A DNA stretch of 63,446 nt, filler included, from Globobulimina sp. (taxonomy: Eukaryota): the NCBI GenBank assembly GCA_003354225.1. It is 26 parts of 26 records of this genome, joined end to end, with 100 filler letters (N's around TTAATTAATTAA, not from the genome) between each part and the next. Parts side by side here need not be neighbours in the genome. Positions count along the whole stretch, not along the records: positions 39,120 to 41,463 come from PIVH01007268.1; 25 more parts are not named here. One strand, given 5' to 3'. The first letter of the stretch is position 1. Each line of letters begins with the position of its first letter. A program made the translations under genes and the position numbers. Below the pieces are notes generated by a model. The model was not told the origin of the DNA and searched no databases. It saw only the letters and a list, made by a program, of their open reading frames with translations. Positions 26,898 to 63,156 of this stretch are shown here, one piece after another.

Positions 26898-29103
26898 TGT
26901 TGATAATGCCAATGCTGTGGACGACGCAGATGCAGAGGTTGCTGCTGTTGGTAATGAGGAAGCAGCGGTGGTGGCTGTTGATAATAATGAGGAAGCTGCA
27001 GTGGTGGTGGCAGTAATACCGCTTGGAAATGATGAAAATGAGGATATTAACCAAGCACAACCACCGCCAGAGCCAGAACCAGCACCACAAGCTGCACAAA
27101 TGGACGTAGACGCACAAGCGCCGGCGATTGAAATAGAAGCACCGCATGAACAGAAATCCGATGAACAAAAGGAAGTATTTGGTATCCCGCCAATACCGAT
27201 AGTAACACCAATCCCTATACCAGTACTACCGCCTGACGTATCTGTGGATAATGAGCAGAAGACGGAAGAAAAGGAGCAAACCATAGTGATTGCGAGCAGT
27301 CCGCCACAGCCACAATCTACACCTCCCGATGTGGCCAGTTTTATGCAAATGGCGCAAGACGGTGATGATGTGTTTATGCCGGATGCAGAGGAAGCTGCGG
27401 ATGATTTACGTGAATTAGATGAGCAATTACAGCAAGCCATGCAACGCATCATCGCTGCGGACAGCTATGACCAGAATGTAAATAGAGCTGCCATGGAACA
27501 GCAAGTGCACCGACAAATGCATGCGCGTTTACAGCAACGATCGCAAGAATTGGAGCAGAAATTGCAAACTGATGAACAAGCCGTATTTCAATTAATGCAA
27601 CAGCAACAGATCCAGTTGCAAGCACTGCAGCAGCAGCAAGAAGATGACGCCTTGGCGGCTGCCTTGGCGCAATCATTGCAGCCCAACAACAATGCGGCGG
27701 TCGATGACAACGCCGACGCAAACCCCGAAAATAACGCAGATATTAATGTTGTTGCAGACGATGTACACGCCGCTGTCTCGCAAGTGGCTGAGGAGGAGTC
27801 GCAAGTTCAAGCGCAGTTAGCGAGGCAAGTGCAAGTGGACGAGTTACGCACACGATATCAGCAACAGATTGAGGAACGAAGACGCGAATTGACGCAACAA
27901 CGACGTGTACAGCAACGCGTACAAGCACAGATTGAACATTTGCGTGTACGGCAGTTACAATCGCAACAAGAGAATATGGATAACGATCTCGCGCAATATA
28001 TGGATTCCGGCGATGATAATAGCAACCGTATACAGGGCCTATTTGGCGCCATGGGCATGGGTGGAATGGGCGGTATGATGGATGCCATGCGAGCCTCGCA
28101 ACGCGGCGGCAGAGGAGGGAGAGGCCGTGGCGGCGGTGGTAGAGGTGGCGGATTGTCAGGGATGGATATATCGTATGAGTCGTATTTGGCGCAACGGAGA
28201 CAGTCTTCGCAGAGTCCGCAGGCTCAGCCACAGTTGCAACCGCAGGTTGTGCTGAGTAATAATGTCGGTGTGGGTGTCGGTGGTGGATTGAATGAGCAGT
28301 TTGGGTCCGGGGCGCAGAACATCGCGAATTTATGGCGCGACCAACCGGCGCAGAGCTTCAATCGCCGGCATAATCCGTATGGACACCATGGCTTTGGGCG
28401 GAGAGGAAGAGGTCGCGGCGGAATGTTGCGTAGCCAATGGGACGATTTTCAACACCGACATCGGCATAGACGGCGAAGGGACGTGGCCGATGAAGAGAAG
28501 AGCGAACAGAAAGATGCCGCGGATGAGAAGAAGGACGAAGTGAAGGAAGCTGACGATGCGTTTAAGAGTGAGGAGTTGCTCAATTTCTTACTGAATAAGT
28601 GCATACAAGACAGTATTGAGATTATTCAGACTGCGAAAGCGGTGCATGTCGAGAATGAGAGTGTGAAGGAGAAGATTGTTAAACGGGAGGAATTGCGCAA
28701 ATTGCAAGTGGAAAAAGAGAAATTGGAGCAGGAAAAAGCGGATAAAGATAAGAGTGAAGCGGTGACGGTAACGGCTACGGAGGAAAAAAAGGAGGTAAAT
28801 ACAGAGAAAGTGGAGGAGGAAAAGTTGGAGATACAGATATTAATTCCGACTGCATCGCCGGTCACGAGGCTGTTAAAAGTGATCCAACGCGATTTGACTA
28901 TGCGTGCATGTTCTCGGCAGGAGAGGAGTGACAAAGATATCACATCGTTTATACAGTATTTGCAACAGCTGACCTGCGCCACATTGGATATATTGAAGAC
29001 ATTCATTCTGCCCATATTTGAAGAGTGTAAACAGGAATGCATAAATATCATCGAACACTCCTTTATTACGCACTGTTTTTTGCCGGCGATTCAACAGAGA
29101 TAG
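26898..29103 (+). CDS. Large low-complexity/coiled-coil protein fragment with UIM-like motif and RGG tracts
   Basis: ORF over 700 aa, higher GC. DDALAAALAQSLQ is UIM-like. Q-rich coiled coil. Confidence 0.7.
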
Positions 29104-34881: not shown

Positions 34882-36540
34882 TTACTGATGCACCATGGCA
34901 TGAATCATATTGTCCATAATCCGTCTTTTATCGCTTAGGCAAACATCGAGAATCTTCAATATATGTTTGTACACATTCTGATTGCTAATGTCATATAAAT
35001 GTAGCTGATCGCGCAAATAATTGATGTGTTTCTTAATAATTAGCTCTGGCATTTGCGAGGGTAACATCAACACAAATAAGTTCACCAACAACTTATGTTT
35101 CTGCCGCAGCGATAAATACGCATTCACATTGTATTGGATAAAGGTTTGATAATTATTGTCGTCCTTAAAATTGTTGACATTAATATTGCCATTCTCGATG
35201 CAATATTTATTTGCGGGCAAAAACACAAACGGCGCCACTTCGCGTTGCCATTTGACAAAGTCACCGATCACTTTCTGAGATTTAAAATTGCCCAAAAAAT
35301 GGCTAAAATCAATATGAAATAATTCGCCTTTTCTTCTCAGCATAATATTCGAAGGATGGCGGTCTCCCAAACCCAGCACATACGACGCAATGCAATATCC
35401 GGCACACGAACGGGTATAAATGTCGCGTGCTTTTGCCACCAATTCCAAATTATTCTGGTTCACATCCAACAAATACTTCAAATGTGTGGTGATGTCTCGT
35501 GCTCCTTTTTGTGGCCCACCTCCGTAATGGGTATGAATATGGGTCGTCGTGCTCGAATCCAACACAATTTCCACCATTCCCTGGCCGTAACCGCTGCAAA
35601 TCACCGCATAAAACAACAAATTCAAATTCAAGCCGCGGTCCAACCAAATCTTGTCAATGACGCGGATCACATTTAAGGTCAAGATGTCTTGTCGCAGATC
35701 GTCGCCCGCCTTAAACATCATTGTGTTCTGTCCGCAATCCACGTTTTCAAAGGTTAGCCACAACGGCATCTGCGCACTGCTCATTATTTTGCATTGCTCG
35801 ATGATTATGTGTTTGCAGTGCCATTTGGGTTGGATTGGTAATATAAAATCTGACGGTAACACTTGGTTCAATTTATTCAAATCTCGCTGCAAAATGGCGA
35901 GCAAATTGAGGTTTTTGCCCTTGTACGATTTCGAGTATTTGCGTAGTTTGTTGTTGATGTAATTGAGCGCCATGGACAGATTGGTTTGGATCAAGATGTT
36001 GCGCGCAATATTGGTCTGCGAAAATAATAAATATTCTTCCAAATACAATGCAAACCGCTCAACGTACATCAAATTCAATTGCTTATTGTCTGCGTACTCC
36101 GATTTGATATGCCACCAAAAATAATGTCCGATTTGGTTGGGATTCAAAATGCAGCGACGCATTAATAAGCGTATCAGCGCATTGTTGTGATGCAATTCGT
36201 ATTTTAAGCATTGCACCAATTGCAACAAATAAATCTGTAGGTCGTCGTCGCTCATTTGCGCCAGTTTCGTCACTGCATATTGCCGGATATAATTATCCAT
36301 AAATTCGTAGGATAGCAGTTCCAAGAAATCAGACAAATTCTTGTCGTTACACTTCCATTTCGATACATATGCATACAACTCACTGCGCTGATATTTGTCT
36401 CGGAAATCAATGCAACGGACAAACGCCGTGAAAGCCGCCGGGTTTTTAGATAAAACATCACGGTGTTTCCATATGATTTGCTTTTCTTCGCCGTTGTATT
36501 GGTGCAATAAGTCAAAAGCTATCAACCTGTCGCACTCCGC
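34882..36540 (-). CDS. Phosphatidylinositol 3-kinase catalytic subunit, class I-like (helical and kinase domains, 5'-partial)
   Basis: YLLQLVQCLKYE, GHYFWWH, IMSSAQMPLWL, FKAGDDLRQD, SCAGYCIASYVLGLGDRHPSNIM and FHIDFSHFLGNFK. Confidence 0.95.
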   Translation of the reverse strand, partial: AECDRLIAFDLLHQYNGEEKQIIWKHRDVLSKNPAAFTAFVRCIDFRDKYQRSELYAYVSKWKCNDKNLSDFLELLSYEFMDNYIRQYAVTKLAQMSDDDLQIYLLQLVQCLKYELHHNNALIRLLMRRCILNPNQIGHYFWWHIKSEYADNKQLNLMYVERFALYLEEYLLFSQTNIARNILIQTNLSMALNYINNKLRKYSKSYKGKNLNLLAILQRDLNKLNQVLPSDFILPIQPKWHCKHIIIEQCKIMSSAQMPLWLTFENVDCGQNTMMFKAGDDLRQDILTLNVIRVIDKIWLDRGLNLNLLFYAVICSGYGQGMVEIVLDSSTTTHIHTHYGGGPQKGARDITTHLKYLLDVNQNNLELVAKARDIYTRSCAGYCIASYVLGLGDRHPSNIMLRRKGELFHIDFSHFLGNFKSQKVIGDFVKWQREVAPFVFLPANKYCIENGNINVNNFKDDNNYQTFIQYNVNAYLSLRQKHKLLVNLFVLMLPSQMPELIIKKHINYLRDQLHLYDISNQNVYKHILKILDVCLSDKRRIMDNMIHAMVHQ

Positions 36541-36675
36541 AATATTATCGCTTTTATAATTACTTTTTTTGAAATNNNNNNNNNNNNNNNNNNNNNNNNN
36601 NNNNNNNNNNNNNNNNNNNTTAATTAATTAANNNNNNNNNNNNNNNNNNNNNNNNNNNNNNNNNNNNNNNNNNNN

Positions 36676-39119: not shown

Positions 39120-41463
39120 GATGATCCACAACTCGCTGTATCAACGTTTGTATCGGTTTTATAATCTCTGCCGGTTTACGCTTTTCAATCAAATCAGATA
39201 TAAAATCCAATGCTATTAAAATTGGTTTACATTCAATTCCGTGCCAAAAAATATTTTTAAATTGCAATCCTTCTTCACCTTTTTTTTAATTTTGAATTAA
39301 TATTTTTGTCGAAGAAGAAACATAGATAGGCATACCTCCAATGAATAAATGTTCCGATTCATTTCCAAATCTAGAGAGCCAGCCAATGGATAATAGTGGG
39401 GCATAACCGATATCGTCACCCAATTCTATAATGACTCCGTTATCGAAATTTGTAAAAATAGTGGCAACTTCAAAACTTGATGATGTTGATAATGGGCCAT
39501 AAATATATTGTTTATTGGCAGTTGATGTAAATACTAATTCTTCTCCAATGCCATGATAAAATCGTTTGATTGTATCTTGATATATTGCAACACCATTAAT
39601 TGTCACTGCTTCTTGCAAACATTTGGCTAAATGCCAAAAATACGAATGTCTTTCTTTAATACTACTTTTTGTTTCCTCTGAAGATAGTTTCCTGAAAGTT
39701 TTGCTGAATTCGAATTGCAATGCAGTATAATTACAATATATCATTATTGCTAAGATATTTGATAGAGGATATTTGATTTTATCATATTTATATTTGAAAT
39801 AACCACTTTTTTGATGTTGTATGGCATTATTTAATACCATACGATACTGAGACATACTAACTGTTGATTCAGTACTTAACGCATTGTGAGTCAGCTCTTC
39901 CTTCAAAGAACAATATTTTGGAGCTAAATACCCAATATATCTTTCATTATTATTTTTGTGCTCCGCTCTGGCATCATATCCGCCATTATCATATTGGAAG
40001 ATATAACCAAAACTATACAATCCATCGTTATTTCTTTCATGATTATCAACACCAACCAATGACGTGAATTTATTATGTTTTATTCGTTTTCGTGATTTAA
40101 ATGATTTCAATTTCTCTGCAATTATTTTATTAATCGGTATTTGTTGATTTAAATTAATTAATGTGCAGTCATTGTCAGTATTAATATTTGCCTTCATTAT
40201 ATCCTCTAATTTGATCCTTTCACTCTTTGTTAATCTAAATCCCTGATCAAAACAATGAAGGTAATAACAATGGATCTTATCCAAAATTTGCTGATACAAA
40301 ACTATTTTATCTTTTTTGTCATTTCTGTTTCGTTGAATAGATTTAACCATTCGATGAAATTGTTCAAATACGATATGATCATTATTTTCTTTTAATTCAT
40401 ATGTTACCTCATTCTTTTCTTTTAATTCATCTGTGTCAATGATTGCATGTTCAGTGTTTTGTCGACGTCGATCTTTTGTATGGACGTTAAGTTCATCATT
40501 ACTTATCTCCAGTGTCAGTGGCGTAGAATGCCCGTTTCTCGGCCTCGCGATCGGTAGTACTGATTGCTTTGAATTATAATCAGCATTCAATTCGAATTCA
40601 TTAATAATGGTTTGCGTAGTTGATGGATTTTCCTTTCCATGCAATAATGCTCGGATATTATACATATCGTTTTTACTGGAAATACTATCTAAAATCTCAT
40701 CAATGCTTCGAAGCTGTTCACAAATGACAAATCAGTCAAATAAAATAAATATAACTCGATATTGCTTAACTTTATTAGAAAATAAGTAATTAAGTTGTTG
40801 CTGTTGATCAGCTCTTATTTGTAAATCACGTATCAACTCAGTCAAGGCAGTCATTTCTACATCAGATTGTACCGTACAATGAGTTAAATATTGGTTAATT
40901 TCTTCTTCATTGTCATCATGACTTCTATCTCGATAATTCCTTGAAAATATTCTGCACTCCGCAACACCGCAAGGTACTAAACTGTTGTATATATATTCAA
41001 AATCATCATTATTATCATGAAAATGCGTTAGATGCAGGAAATCATTTAATATTAATTCAATATTAAATTGATCAAAATCTACAATAGTGCCTGTCATAAA
41101 TGTAGCAAACGTTTTCATTGCAATTGCTAATCTTTTTAAATTGGTACATAACGATATTTCTTCACACGATACAAAATGATGTTTAATTAAATCATTCTGC
41201 TGAACATTCGGAATCGGATCTGTCTCCCTTGTCTTAACACGCTCTATTAACTTTAGATATGCTTTTCTCCGTAACTCATTTTTTGGTGTATACATATTGT
41301 AATTATTATTGTTTGAATTTATATAACATTTAATACATTCATTCACTGACAATTTTGTATTATCCAAATTTTTGTTCCATTCACAAATCTCGGAAATGAA
41401 CTTCGAAATAATCTCACTGTGCTCAAAATAATATGCCAAATCCACATAAAGTGGATCATATTT
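39120..41463 (-). CDS. Large protein with ADP-ribosyltransferase-like domain; introns 40714-40770 and 39279-39335; partial at both ends
   Basis: Two 57-nt GT-AG introns join ORFs 40732-41445, 39286-40665 and 39064-39267 in frame. ART-like motifs RFYHGI, PLSTSSSFEVA and SRFGNESEHLF. Confidence 0.7.
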
Positions 41464-41563: not shown

Positions 41564-42499
41564 AAGGACCATTTGAATGACGCCAATGAAATGATCGATC
41601 GGTATAACAGTTTGATCAAAGCGTGCAACCCAAACAGCAGCAACGTGCGCGCTGTGCGCAGATCTCCCTTCGACAACAATTTATTGCACGATTTGTGGAA
41701 CTTATTGAACGAAATCGGCGAGAATGACGGCAGCGAATATGGGGTGGTCTGGGCCAGCGAAGGGCGCGCCTTTCACATTGTAAATGTGGACTTATTTGTG
41801 GCCAATTTCATGTCGCGCAACAAACACAATATCATTGAGGATAAAAATTATGACTCATTTAGTTTAAGGTTAACTGTGTTGGGCTTTGAGCAGGAAAAAG
41901 ATGCCAATTTGTACCATCATCCATGTTTCAATAAGAGCAGTAATAAATTGATTGACTTTATTGGAAAGAATAGCATTCCGCTGCCGGATGACGATGATAA
42001 AGCGGCGTTGTTTAAGTCGCGAGTCTTGAAAGAGAAACAGCAGCAAATCCATCCGATCATTGATGACTTTGCACGGCCGTTGCATAATAATTTCGATATG
42101 AATATGAATGTTATGAATGCGATGAATACGCCGATGGGGAATGATAGGAAGAGGAGTAGAGCTGCGGTGAAAATGGAGGAAGTGAATTTGAATTATAACT
42201 ATGGTTTGTTTGTGCCCATTGAGAGTGGTTTAGATTTGAATCAATGCCATACATGGACGGAACATGAGGTTGGTGAATGGATTCGGCATTTACCGGATTG
42301 GGGCAATTATTATGCTGCGAAATTTGTGGAGAATGGCATTGATGGCAGGATATTGTTGGAATTTGAGGACTTGGAGTTGGTGATGAAAGAAGCGGATATT
42401 CAGCCTATCCATAAAGCGACCTTTATTTGTGGCGTCAATATGTTACGGAGTGTTCGGCGAAGAGGTATTCAACAAATGAGGCAATCACAAGGGAAATAA
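41564..42499 (+). CDS. HSF-type DNA-binding domain plus C-terminal SAM domain protein (5'-partial)
   Basis: LWNLL...VVWASEGRAFHIVN...NYDSFSLRLTVLGF...YHHPCF (HSF-like) and WTEHEVGEWI...YAAKFVENGIDGRILL (SAM). Confidence 0.75.
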   Translation, partial: KDHLNDANEMIDRYNSLIKACNPNSSNVRAVRRSPFDNNLLHDLWNLLNEIGENDGSEYGVVWASEGRAFHIVNVDLFVANFMSRNKHNIIEDKNYDSFSLRLTVLGFEQEKDANLYHHPCFNKSSNKLIDFIGKNSIPLPDDDDKAALFKSRVLKEKQQQIHPIIDDFARPLHNNFDMNMNVMNAMNTPMGNDRKRSRAAVKMEEVNLNYNYGLFVPIESGLDLNQCHTWTEHEVGEWIRHLPDWGNYYAAKFVENGIDGRILLEFEDLELVMKEADIQPIHKATFICGVNMLRSVRRRGIQQMRQSQGK

Positions 42500-51686: not shown

Positions 51687-51723
51687 GGATAATTACCAAT
51701 TGACAAAACACTAACTTCAAAAC

Positions 51724-53019
51724 ATGGCACATTTGTCAAAAAACAGGTGGAGAAGAGTGATATGGAGGAATAAAATAATCATAGTGATAATCTTAATTAT
51801 TCTTTGTCTCATTTCTGACCAAATCTACCTGAACTCACTGGTGATCGATAAACCCGATGTACCGTATAAGCCAATAATAGAGAAACAAAGTATCACCTTG
51901 AACAAAAATACAAACACCAATCCATTGCAAAAACACATAGAACAACGGACCAAACCAACACATACTCACTGTCCAAATCCATATCTAGAGCACTATAACA
52001 CCGCACGTCCGAAATACCAACGATTAGACATATCCAAACTACCCAGTAACTGGCTATATTTTGCAAATCGCTGCCAAATGAATGAAAAGAAATTTACTCA
52101 CAATGGGCACGGTGATTTTGACAAAATATGGATGAATTCCAAAATAGGATACCTACATAATTATAAATGTGGCGGTTCCAGCATTCAGTTAGCATTGGAA
52201 AAATTATCTAAAATAGATTTAAAAGGAGATTATCTGTACAATGATTCGAGACGCAACGATGTGAATTTATTTGTAAGTTCCAAAGCGTTTATGAATGAAA
52301 GTGGATGGCACACAAATCCGCACAAATGGTACAAAATATTGACGGATATGTTTTTATTTACGTTTGTGAGGGATCCAATTGACAAATTTCTATCATCTTT
52401 TTACGAAGTTCATACCAGAAACCACAGTGCCAAACGCATTTGGAGCCGATTGCACGTGTCGCAATATTCGGGAATAACACGGTTAAGGAAATTATTACAA
52501 TTATTCGGAGCAAACATGGATGAAATGAGAAACGGAGTTATTGGTAATGAGAAACATCACATTGATATTGGCAGTTTATGGAAAGGAGAGAGACATTTTC
52601 ATCCTCAAATGTTATTTTTATGGAATGTGGAATTTAAATTTTTGCCTTTTGATTATATCGGAGATATAAATGAGTTGGATAATGCATTGAAAATTATATT
52701 GGATGAATTTAGTGATTATTTTCATGCGAATCCAGACAAATATGAAACGTTTGTAAGACATTTGAGACAGAGACAAGTGGAGGATACTATAAATAAGGAC
52801 AAGTTCAGAAAGAAACGTAATTATGCACATGCAAAGGACAATGCTTATTACATAACAAGAGATGAATTGGATGATGATGATATTAAAGCCATCTGTGAGG
52901 CATATTGGGTGGATTATATTTGTCTGCCATTTGATATTCCGAAACAATGCAATGCTGAACAATTGTTTGCCAAATACTTTAATCGGTTTGTTGCTTATAA
53001 TGATTGCTACTTCAGTTGA
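51724..53019 (+). CDS. Golgi type II membrane sulfotransferase (Sulfotransfer_2 / carbohydrate sulfotransferase-like)
   Basis: N-terminal TM, 5'-PSB YLHNYKCGGSS, 3'-PB FTFVRDPIDKFLSSFYE, HFHPQ and FDYIG. Confidence 0.88.
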   Translation: MAHLSKNRWRRVIWRNKIIIVIILIILCLISDQIYLNSLVIDKPDVPYKPIIEKQSITLNKNTNTNPLQKHIEQRTKPTHTHCPNPYLEHYNTARPKYQRLDISKLPSNWLYFANRCQMNEKKFTHNGHGDFDKIWMNSKIGYLHNYKCGGSSIQLALEKLSKIDLKGDYLYNDSRRNDVNLFVSSKAFMNESGWHTNPHKWYKILTDMFLFTFVRDPIDKFLSSFYEVHTRNHSAKRIWSRLHVSQYSGITRLRKLLQLFGANMDEMRNGVIGNEKHHIDIGSLWKGERHFHPQMLFLWNVEFKFLPFDYIGDINELDNALKIILDEFSDYFHANPDKYETFVRHLRQRQVEDTINKDKFRKKRNYAHAKDNAYYITRDELDDDDIKAICEAYWVDYICLPFDIPKQCNAEQLFAKYFNRFVAYNDCYFS

Positions 53020-58562: not shown

Positions 58563-58780
58563 NNNNNNNNNNNNNNNNNNNNNNNNNNNNNNNNNNNNNN
58601 NNNNNNTTAATTAATTAANNNNNNNNNNNNNNNNNNNNNNNNNNNNNNNNNNNNNNNNNNNNCAGCCTCAATTAATTCAATTACACTTATTTTCTCTTTA
58701 CGGCGTGAAAAAAACACTAAAAATAATATACAAACGACACACAAACTACACCCAAAAACGTATACAATACAAAATAAAAA

Positions 58781-61004
58781 ATGGTTAAATATAAATTATT
58801 ACAATATAACGTCAATGGGATTATTAGTCCCACAAAAATGACACAAGAACAAAAATGCAAAAAAATCCACCAAATAATGATATCAAAACAAATTGATTTC
58901 GTTCTCCTTCAGGAATGGAGTGCTACTCTCCGCTATGCAGTATCTCCAACAAATCCAAATTACACGGATTCCAATAATAAAAACCATTCAATAAAATTCC
59001 CAATTGAATACTTTCCGAAATACAAAGTCCATTATTCGGGAACAGAAACGGCCATAATGTATAGAGAAACACTATTAGTCACTCCGCTACTTTCCCCACC
59101 AAACTATGACCATAGAAACCGCACAATGAACTGCCATATAACAAGTTTAATCTTACACAGTGGCGACCAGAATATAGGCATCCACTCCCTATACAATTGT
59201 CCAAGAAACCCAAATATCGATCAATTATTTAATTACCCCCTGACTGTAGACAATAATGTCATCGCCGGGGATTTTAATATACCGAATGTAATTTGGGGCA
59301 GTGATAGATCCACTGCAGAGTCTGATAATTTTGTAGACGGAATTGAATTTTTAAATATGCAGATCCTAAACATAACTAATCCGTCTTATACACACATCCA
59401 TAAATCCTACCATACAAAATCTGCCATAGACCTAACGTTATTCTCCGATAAACTAAAACACACCAAATGGAATATACTACATTCATTGTATGATCCGGAT
59501 TGTTCCGACCACGTTCCCATTGTCTCCGCCTTTGAAATTGAAAACGTCTTTGGGTTCAGTGAGACAAAAAAAACCTGGAACCTGGCGGACAAAAGGAAAT
59601 GGAATAAATACACGGAAACCCTTGAAACAAATATTAAAACTACAGAATTTGATAAAAATCCGAACCTATATACGGAACAACTGACCTATCTCATAATATT
59701 CACAGCAGAGAAAACCATTGGATATAAACACTATTACCGTGGCCATAAACCATGGTGGAATAATAAAATAAAGAAATTAAAAAAACGCTGCAAACGCCTT
59801 CGGCGTAGAATCCAACGAATGAAGAAAAAAGCAAAACGCTGCTGTACTGATTTCCATCTTTTTCCAAAATATAAAACTATCCAAATTGCCAAAGCTGCCC
59901 ATAATAACAGATTGAATAAATATATACAAACATGCAAAGACTATGGCCGCAGATTCTGGCGAACCATAACTAGCAATAAATCAAATGACACCAATACAAA
60001 TAATATCCCACCATTAAATTATAAGAATAAAACGAATATAGTTGATCCAAAACTGCAGGCGAAGGTGCTCCAGGAGGCAATGACAAGACCGCCTAAACCA
60101 AAAACGAGTGATAACCATAAGGATTGGCATAAATATGTAAACAATTTTGTCCCTGAATACCTAAGAAATCATAAAAATCCAACAATAAACGATATAAATG
60201 ATATACATAATATAAAACATGATAAAACTGCGCAAAATAAAGATTCTAAAATCAATAATCCATCGCAAATAAATACAGAAATCCCAATCCCAAATAATAA
60301 ATACCAAATATTAAATGATCCAATACTAAAATATGAAATCCGCGCTGTCATTAAAAAACTTGATACCCACAAAGCATATGGACCCGATCGGATTCACAAC
60401 CAAATGATCAAACATGGTGGGGAAGCACTTATAGAATGCCTCCAACCGCTGTTTAATAAATGTATGACTAATGGGATATTCCCGGGATATTGGAATTTTG
60501 CACATATACTACCAATTCCTAAACCAAATAAGGACCATAGTAATCCCAAGAACTACAGACCCATTGCGGTCTCATCCTGTCTGGGAAGAGTTTTTGAAAA
60601 GATCCTAGCCAACAGACTTCAGCACTACTGTGTGGAAAACAGAATATTCAATAACTATCAATGCGGATTCCAGATTAACAGATGCTGTGATGATGTACTT
60701 ACCACATTTATCACAGATATACAAACGTCTTTCGATATGGTCAGTGAAACGGATGTTGTTTTCACGGACTTTTCCAAAGCTTATGATAGTGTCTGGCACA
60801 ACGGTCTGCTATACAAACTAATTAAAAATAACATAAAAGGCAATATATTGAATGTTTTGGCTTCTTTTATCCAAACAAGATACACAAAAGTTATCGCGAA
60901 AAAAGCAGAGTCAAATTGGGTGGCTCAACCAATTGGAGTCCCGCAAGGCTCTGCATTATCGCCTATCCTATATATATTGTTTACAAATGATTTTAAACTA
61001 AATT
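58781..61004 (+). mobile_element. APE-type non-LTR retrotransposon (LINE) ORF2: AP endonuclease plus RT (3'-partial)
   Basis: QYNVNG, LLQE, GDFN, SAIDL, SDHVPI (EN); KAYGPD, YRPIA, QCGF, DFSKAYDSV, GVPQGSALSPILY (RT). Confidence 0.95.
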
Positions 61005-61843: not shown

Positions 61844-63156
61844 ATGGGCAATAAACTTTCACTTCATCGTCGAAACTCATCGTCAGTCAACGGTACAAAA
61901 TACAAATCGACATTAATGGTCGATCGAATAACGTACATCTCTTTTCCAACATTAAAACACACAAATAACCCACAGATGAAAAGATTATTGCAGATATACA
62001 TGCGCCTACACCTGATAGTCAACACTCATATGATATTGATATTGATTTTAAACAGCTTAAACCAAAAACTTCGTCTCCATCAGCAGTGGACGCAGATATT
62101 TCTGAAAAATTAACCGCAGAAGAATTTGCACAAAAATTTACATTAAATATGTTATTATGCGGCACTGAACAAAGTGGCAAATATGCTATATTCAAACAAT
62201 TGGAGCAAGCATTTAAAGGCAGCATCGATAAAAAACAAACAAAAATTGCATTAAAGGCTATTCGAATACAATTAGTCAAAGACATGGTAGCTCTCTGTGG
62301 TTTAAATAATTCCTTAAACAAACAAGCGAACCAACCGCTGATCACAAAATATAAAATAAAAAACAGCGAATTAAAACAAATTTGTGTCAGAATAGCATCA
62401 TTAAAAGAAATCTCCTATACATTATCCAAAGAATTATCAATGCTGTTATATTTACTATGGAATGATGCCGCCATTCAAGAAACGTATAAAAAATCTGTCG
62501 AACTTCGTATTTTAACATCAAATTCAAAATATTTTATGGATAAAGTGCTGCAAATTGTAGATACAAATTATATGCTAACATTTGACGATTACATTGAGAT
62601 CAAAGATAGTGAGAGTCAGTCGAATGGTGTTTCGCAAAAACAATTTCGCATTGAAACCAAACAAGGACAGTATAAGTTTAATGTGTCGCAAATTAATAAA
62701 CAGCGCTCTGAGAGAAGGAGATGGGCCTCGTATTTGGACAACATTCAGATATTTGTGTATGTGATAAATATATCGCAGTATGATGTTGCAAATAACTTAC
62801 AAGCTGCAATTGATTTATTTGGCAAAGTGTGTGCTGATCCAACCGTTACTGCCACGGATTTTGTTGTGTTATTTAATGGAATAAATGAGTTTGAGAATAA
62901 AATACAAAATGTACCATTTACAGTATTTGATGTGGAAGAACCAAATCAAAGTCAATGTGTACAACTATATCTGATGAATAAATTGAAAACAATCTGCAAG
63001 AATAGCAATGTAAATAATGCCTATAGCCATAAAAAACGGCATATATATTTTCATCGAGTGAATGATTCCAATACAGAGCAAATTGGCTTATTGTTGCAGA
63101 AAATCCATACCGATGTTATTACTACGTCGATGAAAAAAATGGGCTATGTTTTGTGA
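61844..63156 (+). CDS. Divergent heterotrimeric G-protein alpha subunit-like protein; intron 61893-61975
   Basis: MGNKLS start; an 83-nt GTACAA...CAG intron links it in frame to ORF 62086. LLCGTEQSGK..IFKQL, LWNDAAIQETY, QRSERRRW and FVVLFN. Confidence 0.85.

Follow-up and report, generated by a model that had tools for sequence, protein, structure and literature searches.

Can an ADP-ribosyltransferase (ART) retain the fold and most of the catalytic motifs of one clade of these enzymes and yet carry, at its first catalytic position, the histidine of the other? This question is raised by a partial gene of Globobulimina sp. (Eukaryota; assembly GCA_003354225.1) that occupies contig PIVH01007268.1, at positions 39120-41463 of the 63,446-nucleotide stretch analyzed here (hereafter the window). 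A preliminary description of the window, made from the sequence alone, had suggested that this gene codes for an uncharacterized, probably lineage-expanded ART-fold protein with a hybrid active site. According to a review of these enzymes, ARTs are split into two clades by their NAD-binding triads, R-S-E or H-Y-E (PMC3102197). The foraminiferal family to which the window gene belongs mixes the predicted R-S-E fold, the S-T-S and the ExE motifs with the His of the H-Y-E clade, all of them strongly conserved, and its catalytic domain is best described as an H-S-ExE variant inside an ARTC-type fold.

The active site and its conservation

All features of the gene lie on the minus strand, and catalytic residues are numbered along exon 2. 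The ART-fold (ARTC-like) domain comprises exon-2 residues ~230-460 and ~19 residues of exon 3, and spans 39220-40026 (the 3′ limit being approximate), with the second intron inside this span. Its first motif, RFYHGI (39547-39564), lies on predicted strand β1 (385-389, holding F385-Y-H387-G-I) and puts His387 (codon 39553-39555) in the position of the Arg of R-S-E. The second, PLSTSSSFEVA (39463-39495), supplies the S-T-S strand, with S409-T410-S411 (39481-39489) on predicted strand β2, just before helix 414-420. The third, E452-S-E454 (the ExE; 39352-39360), ends a loop resembling the ADP-ribosylating toxin turn-turn (ARTT) loop, just before strand 454-456, and has an aromatic residue three residues upstream. 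In the model, this order and placement are those of β1, β2/helix and ARTT-loop/β5 in the R-S-E enzymes. The preliminary description had located the first and third motifs where we find them; the second it had recognized correctly but placed slightly off, at about 39470-39498. Preceding β1, the helix motif MIYCNYTALQFEFSKTFR (39691-39744) displays a conserved Asn (178/187 domains) and Arg (171/187), and appears to resemble the Y..Y..IN..LR helix of the C3/VIP2/SpvB-type ARTs.

These counts, and those that follow, come from an alignment of 187 domains from 181 proteins obtained with a domain hidden Markov model, with 241 well-occupied match columns. The β1 column is occupied by H in 179 of 183 domains, by R in three and by D in one; the preceding residue is Y (166/183) or F (15/183), and a Gly follows in every case (183/183). 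The S-T-S positions are equally constrained (S 182/182, T 178/182, S or T at the third position 181/182), as is the ExE (first E 174/174, second E 172/172) along with a Y or F three positions before its first Glu (171/174). The catalytic columns are among the top-conserved of the 241, for which the median top-residue frequency is 0.50; hence, the motifs are not a product of chance. Conservation of H, S-T-S and ExE among paralogues, which had been named in advance as a check, bears out the R-to-H switch suggested in the preliminary description.

The three Arg-bearing domains read F-F-R-G-L, L-Y-R-G-V and F-Y-R-G-V, with S-T-S/T and ExE intact, and this Arg in the very same column is the strongest evidence that the His, as judged from the alignment, replaces the R-S-E arginine. 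Six of the 181 family proteins, including P0056 and P0171, have two ART-like domains, and two of the three canonical R-S-ExE domains are extra, more divergent copies (P0056/358-589 and P0171/889-1083). This hints at an R-S-ExE ancestor for the His form.

Correspondence with a known enzyme leads to the same assignment of the catalytic Glu. The structural alignment with rat ART2.2 ends with model residue 460 on chain residue 195, which puts E454 on residue 189, the position mutated in the PDB titles E189I/E189A. With R126 and S147 as the other two catalytic residues of ART2.2, the offsets to His387 and Ser409 would be 261 and 262, both in keeping with a collinear alignment along which the offset goes from 226 up to 265. 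The S-T-S on β2, in both the window protein and the family, and the catalytic Glu on β5 after the ARTT loop, with its E-x-E, are the marks of ARTCs that the domain displays. With the H-Y-E/ARTD clade (diphtheria toxin, PARPs, Arr, Tpt1) it shares the aromatic-His-Gly on β1 and the catalytic Glu on β5, but not the Tyr motif on or after β2, the equivalent strand being P-L-S-T-S-S-S.

The predicted fold

The window exon-2 sequence was modeled with a family alignment (A1), residues 261-370 attaining a predicted local distance difference test (pLDDT) score of 84-95 and residues 381-460 one of 71-83. The best Foldseek rows for this model are all R-S-E ARTs, with weak E-values (best 8.5e-3, probability 0.99). 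In structural comparison, rat ART2.2 scores 13.3 (root-mean-square deviation 3.2 Å, 183 residues, model 230-460), XopAI 11.4, HopU1 10.8, the ART toxin/immunity pair 6drh 10.6 and ExoS 10.1. A full-length paralogue, P0002 (633 amino acids), folded with 75 sequences, yielded a model with pLDDT 88.6 and a predicted template modeling score of 0.89; for this model, a scan of 48,161 representative chains made independently of Foldseek has only ARTC-type enzymes in rows 1-19, with ART2.2 at 13.7. The predicted structure has the split β-sheet core and the N-terminal helical sub-domain of the ARTC/R-S-E class, so that the earlier suggestion of an ART-fold family is upheld by structure comparison. The alignment of P0002 with diphtheria toxin starts with model residue 338 on chain residue 12, which would put P0002 His347 on toxin residue 21, presumably the catalytic His of that toxin.

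The nearest clusters in the ESM Atlas are eukaryotic mono-ADP-ribosyltransferase clusters (score 0.97), of whose members only 20-27% carry PF01129. Pfam scans covered the 181 family proteins and the window protein, at E <= 0.1, 1e-3 or 1e-4 depending on the batch. Of 40 family members, two matched PF01129 (ART), both at sub-threshold scores with a best E of 0.0018, no ART family was found in the other 142 proteins (E <= 1e-3 or 1e-4), and neither PF01129 nor PF03496 came above its gathering score. Plasmid sequences searched by tblastn with the ART domain contained no match at E <= 10, and PF01129 was found neither in pSLT nor in 14 control genomes.

A spliced gene filling the contig

One partial gene fills the whole contig (39120-41463). 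Its open reading frames (ORFs), spliced in silico, give 743 codons without a stop, and the frame is open at both contig ends; thus, the gene is partial at both ends. Exon 1 (41463-40771, 231 codons), exon 2 (40713-39336) and exon 3 (39278-39121) are separated by intron 1 (40770-40714) and intron 2 (39335-39279), each of 57 nucleotides with GT..AG ends; intron 2 is in phase 1 and lies directly after the strand following the ExE. The fraction of G plus C (GC) is 0.305 in the contig, 0.307 in the exons and 0.246 in the introns.

Both introns are real on two independent lines of evidence, namely homologue alignment and public contigs matched to the ART contig. As to the former, the closest homologue, P0001, matches the spliced product with 80% identity over 191 residues (and exon 2 by itself with 84%) and crosses the exon 2/3 junction (LFIGG|EEGLQF) without a gap; 133 high-scoring segment pairs of the family span this junction and 16 span junction 1. 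As to the latter, a contig from run X2 passes straight from 40713 to 40771, the shorter side of the joint having 185 letters, and contigs from X2 and X4 join 39276 to 39334, a cut that can equally be placed two bases further (39278/39336). Each X2/X4 joint skips 57 nucleotides that read CT..AC on the plus strand, i.e., GT..AG on the gene strand. Contigs from a further run, X1, extend into both introns. X2 and X4 are one sample, taken to be RNA only by guess, and their contigs, being 90-99% alike to the window, would derive from a close relative or an allele. The preliminary description had merged three ORFs across two 57-nucleotide introns into one protein spanning the contig, and had seen in it an intron-containing eukaryotic gene; both points stand on the evidence of these alignments and contigs.

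A foraminiferal family of great size

A profile search of 1.84 billion representative proteins (clustered at 50% identity) retrieved 6759 family members with E <= 1e-3, of which 4912 reach E <= 1e-10 and 2554 reach E <= 1e-30, figures that are upper bounds on the number of genes, since non-overlapping fragments of one gene may form separate clusters. Among 30 members whose taxa were looked up, 24 come from Bolivina argentea, three from Nonionella stella and three from ENA/Logan records without a species name, i.e., all 27 species-named homologues belong to two foraminifera. The suggestion of a lineage-expanded family is thereby confirmed. The 53 matches to the window protein stem from EukProt (49) and ENA/Logan (4), and the 108 matches to a family profile (A2) from EukProt (102) and ENA/Logan (6), with no NCBI or UniRef member in either set and no relative in the viral collection or the prokaryote genome collection. 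Missing from Pfam and, as far as searched, from NCBI/UniRef, the family is invisible to routine annotation, in keeping with its having been called uncharacterized; likewise, open-access papers yielded no description of an H-S-E triad in ADP-ribosyltransferases or of this family.

The JGI metagenomes contain a single relative, on contig L002, which is 50% identical over its best segment, has H-S-ExE, shares the GC of 0.305, and has a frame break located elsewhere than the window introns. Beside this family member, the stretch 2223-7377 of L002 holds an 822-codon acidic low-complexity ORF and an ORF with RING plus CCCH, makorin-like by eye.

The size of the family also bears on whether the window gene might be an artefact, be it a contaminant, a transposon-borne frame or a chance ORF. 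The very fragmented assembly, the retroelement ORFs on neighboring contigs and the extreme copy number could be read in this way. However, the spliceosomal introns are removed in independent contigs, the composition equals that of the other contigs, functional residues are kept in thousands of diverged homologues, and there is no transposase or reverse transcriptase in the window gene or in L002. We therefore consider an artefact extremely improbable.

The family is set apart from the known ARTs of its structural class by the β1 residue. The vertebrate ecto-ARTs (rat ART2.2, PF01129) have an Arg there, as do XopAI, HopU1, the 6drh/6dre toxin-immunity pair, ExoS, C3, VIP2 and SpvB (Y-R-G in SpvB-like enzymes), whereas the foraminiferal family has His and no Pfam match at threshold. 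Ecto-ARTs are secreted or glycosylphosphatidylinositol-anchored single-domain proteins; in contrast, the foraminiferal ART sits between a Cys/His helical module and a leucine-rich repeat (LRR)-like domain and occurs with adaptors of cytosolic type. As against the bacterial ARTC effectors and toxins, the family is eukaryotic, intron-containing and massively paralogous.

Domain architecture and accessory modules

Exon 1 (40771-41463) codes for an N-terminal region of no known family and, as indicated by conservation, the first part of the Cys/His helical module; the N-terminal 100 residues have no Pfam match. It bears the motifs CEEISLC (41146-41166), LNDFLHLTHFH (41017-41049) and CGVAEC..RNYRDR (CGVAECRIFSRNYRDR; 40924-40971), the last with a C-x4-C. 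Exon 2 (39336-40713) supplies, by conservation and the model, a low-complexity linker, the second part of the module with LDKIHCYYLH (40255-40284), and most of the ART-fold domain. Exon 3 (39121-39278) adds the last ART strands and, by comparison with homologues, the start of a helical linker to a C-terminal α/β (LRR-like) domain. The helical N-terminal Cys/His motifs had thus been rightly noticed in the preliminary description, except that the two cysteines are spaced as C-x4-C and not as C-x3-C.

The C-x4-C (CGVAEC, exon 1) and an H-x4-H (IHCYYLH, exon 2) are conserved in at least 90% of the family; the upstream C..C pair and an L-N-D-x-x-H-L-x-x-H motif show weaker conservation. This helical module with C-x4-C...H-x4-H is probably zinc-binding and, going by its sequence, a candidate new domain: it has no Pfam match and no PDB match that stands out, and in the ESM Atlas neither the window version nor P0002 residues 1-190 resembles any entry above noise level (best score 0.77). 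In the window protein the module is interrupted by the long low-complexity linker (pLDDT < 50, exon-2 residues 14-104). The X4 contigs lack 39 bases at 40146-40186 and 51 bases at 40377-40429 of this linker, both in frame and without GT..AG ends, and these gaps are better read as length differences between alleles or paralogues than as introns. The window contig stops within the helix leading into the C-terminal α/β domain, which in paralogues is a repeat domain of ~170 residues located C-terminal to the ART domain.

Most family members have no recognizable accessory domain, but ubiquitin-, proteasome- or p97-type modules are found in 25 of the 181 paralogues. PUB occurs in 13 proteins (only two above the Pfam cut-off), PITH in five and UBA in three, plus one weak match; AZUL is found in one of the UBA proteins. 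Single proteins carry a UCH deubiquitinase domain, Skp1_POZ, UBC plus ubiquitin, and RING, the last along with pyruvate:ferredoxin oxidoreductase domains in what is possibly a chimeric transcript. Eight proteins have other modules (ankyrin, YEATS, bromodomain, RhoGEF, Dev_Cell_Death, adaptin, CCCH, EGF/Kelch), and precomputed annotations of the family add the MYND, CHY and RanBP zinc fingers, SAM, Kelch and dsRBD. Many of the family sequences, we assume, may stem from assembled transcriptomes; hence, some of these domain fusions may be artefacts.

Proposed function and its alternatives

Taking the modeled fold and the motifs together, we propose that the window gene encodes an active, intracellular, NAD+-dependent mono-ADP-ribosyltransferase with an H-S-ExE site, most likely arginine-directed, a reading whose probability we put slightly above even. 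Briefly, the contig would carry a portion of a nuclear gene from a protist of foraminiferan type, and its product an intracellular multidomain enzyme of three parts: the N-terminal helical Cys/His module with its probable zinc site, the ARTC domain, and a small LRR-like α/β domain, which homologues would place beyond the contig end. NAD+ would be bound by His387 and the S-T-S strand, and the conserved Arg of the upstream F-S-K-T-x-R helix (171/187) may help with the NAD+ phosphates. Glu454 would then catalyze the transfer of ADP-ribose to arginines of cytosolic or nuclear proteins, with target choice probably left to the N-terminal adaptor domains, which vary from one paralogue to the next. 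Arginine is favored as the acceptor because of the ExE, which in ARTCs marks arginine specificity, set by its first Glu (PMC3102197). An active enzyme acting instead on a nucleic acid or a small molecule, in the manner of pierisin, Scabin, DarT and Arr, seems to us quite unlikely.

Several observations weigh against the proposed transferase. At the level of sequence, none of the three window exons has a Pfam family; phmmer with exon 2 and hmmsearch with a 40-member family profile each gave 0 matches at E <= 10 against PDB sequences; and hhalign of the family alignment with the SpvB ART domain, or with an 8-sequence SpvB-like alignment, aligned the ExE segment only, at probabilities of 7.2% and 1.4%, neither of them significant, the shared segment being F/Y..E-x-E..L-F and the following strand. 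With the sequence searches null, the link to ARTs rests on predicted structure, and the mean pLDDT of the window model is only 66, on account of the linker. Further, the aromatic-R-G of ARTCs on β1 is absent, the window having F-Y-H-G-I in its place. In ARTCs such as CteC, NAD+ is contacted at its adenine and diphosphate by the Arg and acted on at its nicotinamide ribose by the Glu, and mutation of the equivalent Arg of CteC (R65A) leaves the enzyme inactive (PMC10810742). Hence, the His could weaken NAD+ binding or change the chemistry. For its part, a His at the equivalent position binds NAD+ in the H-Y-E enzymes.

The absent Arg, together with the failure of any ART Pfam model to reach threshold, might also be taken to mean that the domain is a pseudoenzyme, an ART-fold scaffold or a reader of NAD or ADP-ribose that lost catalysis with the arginine. 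There is a precedent in LRR-flanked, divergent ART-like domains judged likely pseudoenzymes in an earlier study (PMC7955679). However, catalytic residues are usually lost in pseudoenzymes, whereas in this family the conservation of H, G, S, T and both E residues is 98-100%, against a mean column identity of ~15-16%. Moreover, a β1 His is generally known to support NAD+ binding across the H-Y-E clade, and we regard the loss of catalysis as decidedly improbable. The protein in question, LRRC9, is in concept the closest earlier case of an ART-like domain of divergent sequence beside LRRs in eukaryotes: its ART-like domain comes with LRR-type repeats, and an innate-immunity-like role was proposed for it (PMC7955679). 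Compared by description only, it is reported there to have no recognizable classical active site and is a proposed pseudoenzyme (PMC7955679), whereas S-T-S and ExE are invariant in the foraminiferal family.

The fold, the catalytic Glu and the S-T-S are equally compatible with an NAD+ glycohydrolase (NADase), that is, an NAD-consuming effector or sensor without a macromolecular acceptor, such as an immune or death switch inside the cell. The family has expanded hugely in one lineage and has an LRR-like domain at the C-terminus, features that recall immune receptor families, one paralogue has a Dev_Cell_Death domain, and the rat members of the group of ART2.2, the closest structure here, are strong NADases. 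Yet the first Glu of the ExE (174/174) and the ARTT-loop aromatic (171/174) are acceptor-recognition residues in ARTCs, and their retention makes little sense unless there is an acceptor; protein targets are also suggested by the adaptor domains. On balance, we deem an NADase unlikely.

The accessory modules permit the proposed transferase to be taken a step further, in a scenario that is speculative and, as a whole, rather doubtful. H-S-ExE ARTs would be recruited by PUB, PITH, UBA, UCH, RING, AZUL, Skp1 or UBC-ubiquitin modules to ADP-ribosylate ubiquitin or parts of p97 or the proteasome, having massively diversified in foraminifera for intracellular conflict or self/non-self control in relation to symbionts, kleptoplasts, prey or selfish elements, with the LRR-like C-terminal domain as the variable recognition part. 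SidE/SdeA and CteC are injected bacterial effectors of the R-S-E type; in contrast, the foraminiferal link to ubiquitin consists only in the domain fusions of paralogues. These repeated ubiquitin/proteasome/p97 adaptor fusions suggest a cross-talk of ADP-ribosylation with ubiquitin signaling whose origin was separate from that of the bacterial effectors, and, were the ubiquitin-directed scenario true, the family would amount to an endogenous eukaryotic equivalent of the SidE/CteC strategy.

Should the family be active, ARTC chemistry can do without the β1 Arg, and these proteins would offer a natural system in which to ask what that Arg contributes. A 2010 review considered unicellular eukaryotes to be apparently devoid of arginine-specific ARTs (PMC3102197); the foraminiferal family would be a very large counter-example from a little-studied protist lineage. 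Taken together, the evidence points to a new branch of protein-modifying enzymes in foraminifera.

The other contigs of the window

The stretch 1-63446 strings together 26 contigs that are unrelated to one another, each 2342-2346 bases long and sorted by length, the joints being runs of N around TTAATTAATTAA. As the joining is artificial, the neighborhood of the ART gene in the window says nothing of its genomic context. No second copy of the gene is found on the other 25 contigs. Pfam identifies on them, on the plus strand, a LINE-like retroelement ORF at 58778-61003 that combines endonuclease (Exo_endo_phos_2) and reverse transcriptase (RVT_1) domains, a G-protein alpha subunit (61969-63153), an HSF-type DNA-binding protein (41564-42496) and a sulfotransferase (51715-53016), and, on the minus strand, a PI3-kinase (PI3Ka and PI3_PI4_kinase; 34885-36573). 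Thus, ordinary eukaryotic genes on the other contigs support a eukaryotic host, in all likelihood a rotaliid foraminiferan related closely to Bolivina. Of the 16 longest open frames of the window (as scanned, 311-742 codons), ten lack any Pfam family at E <= 1e-5, and by this measure much of the coding content of the genome is uncharacterized. Finally, the contig at 26898-29242 differs from the other 25 in its GC of 0.48 (as against 0.29-0.37) and holds a 734-codon open frame (26899-29100, plus strand) of no Pfam family; it could represent a different genomic compartment, a repeat or a contaminant.

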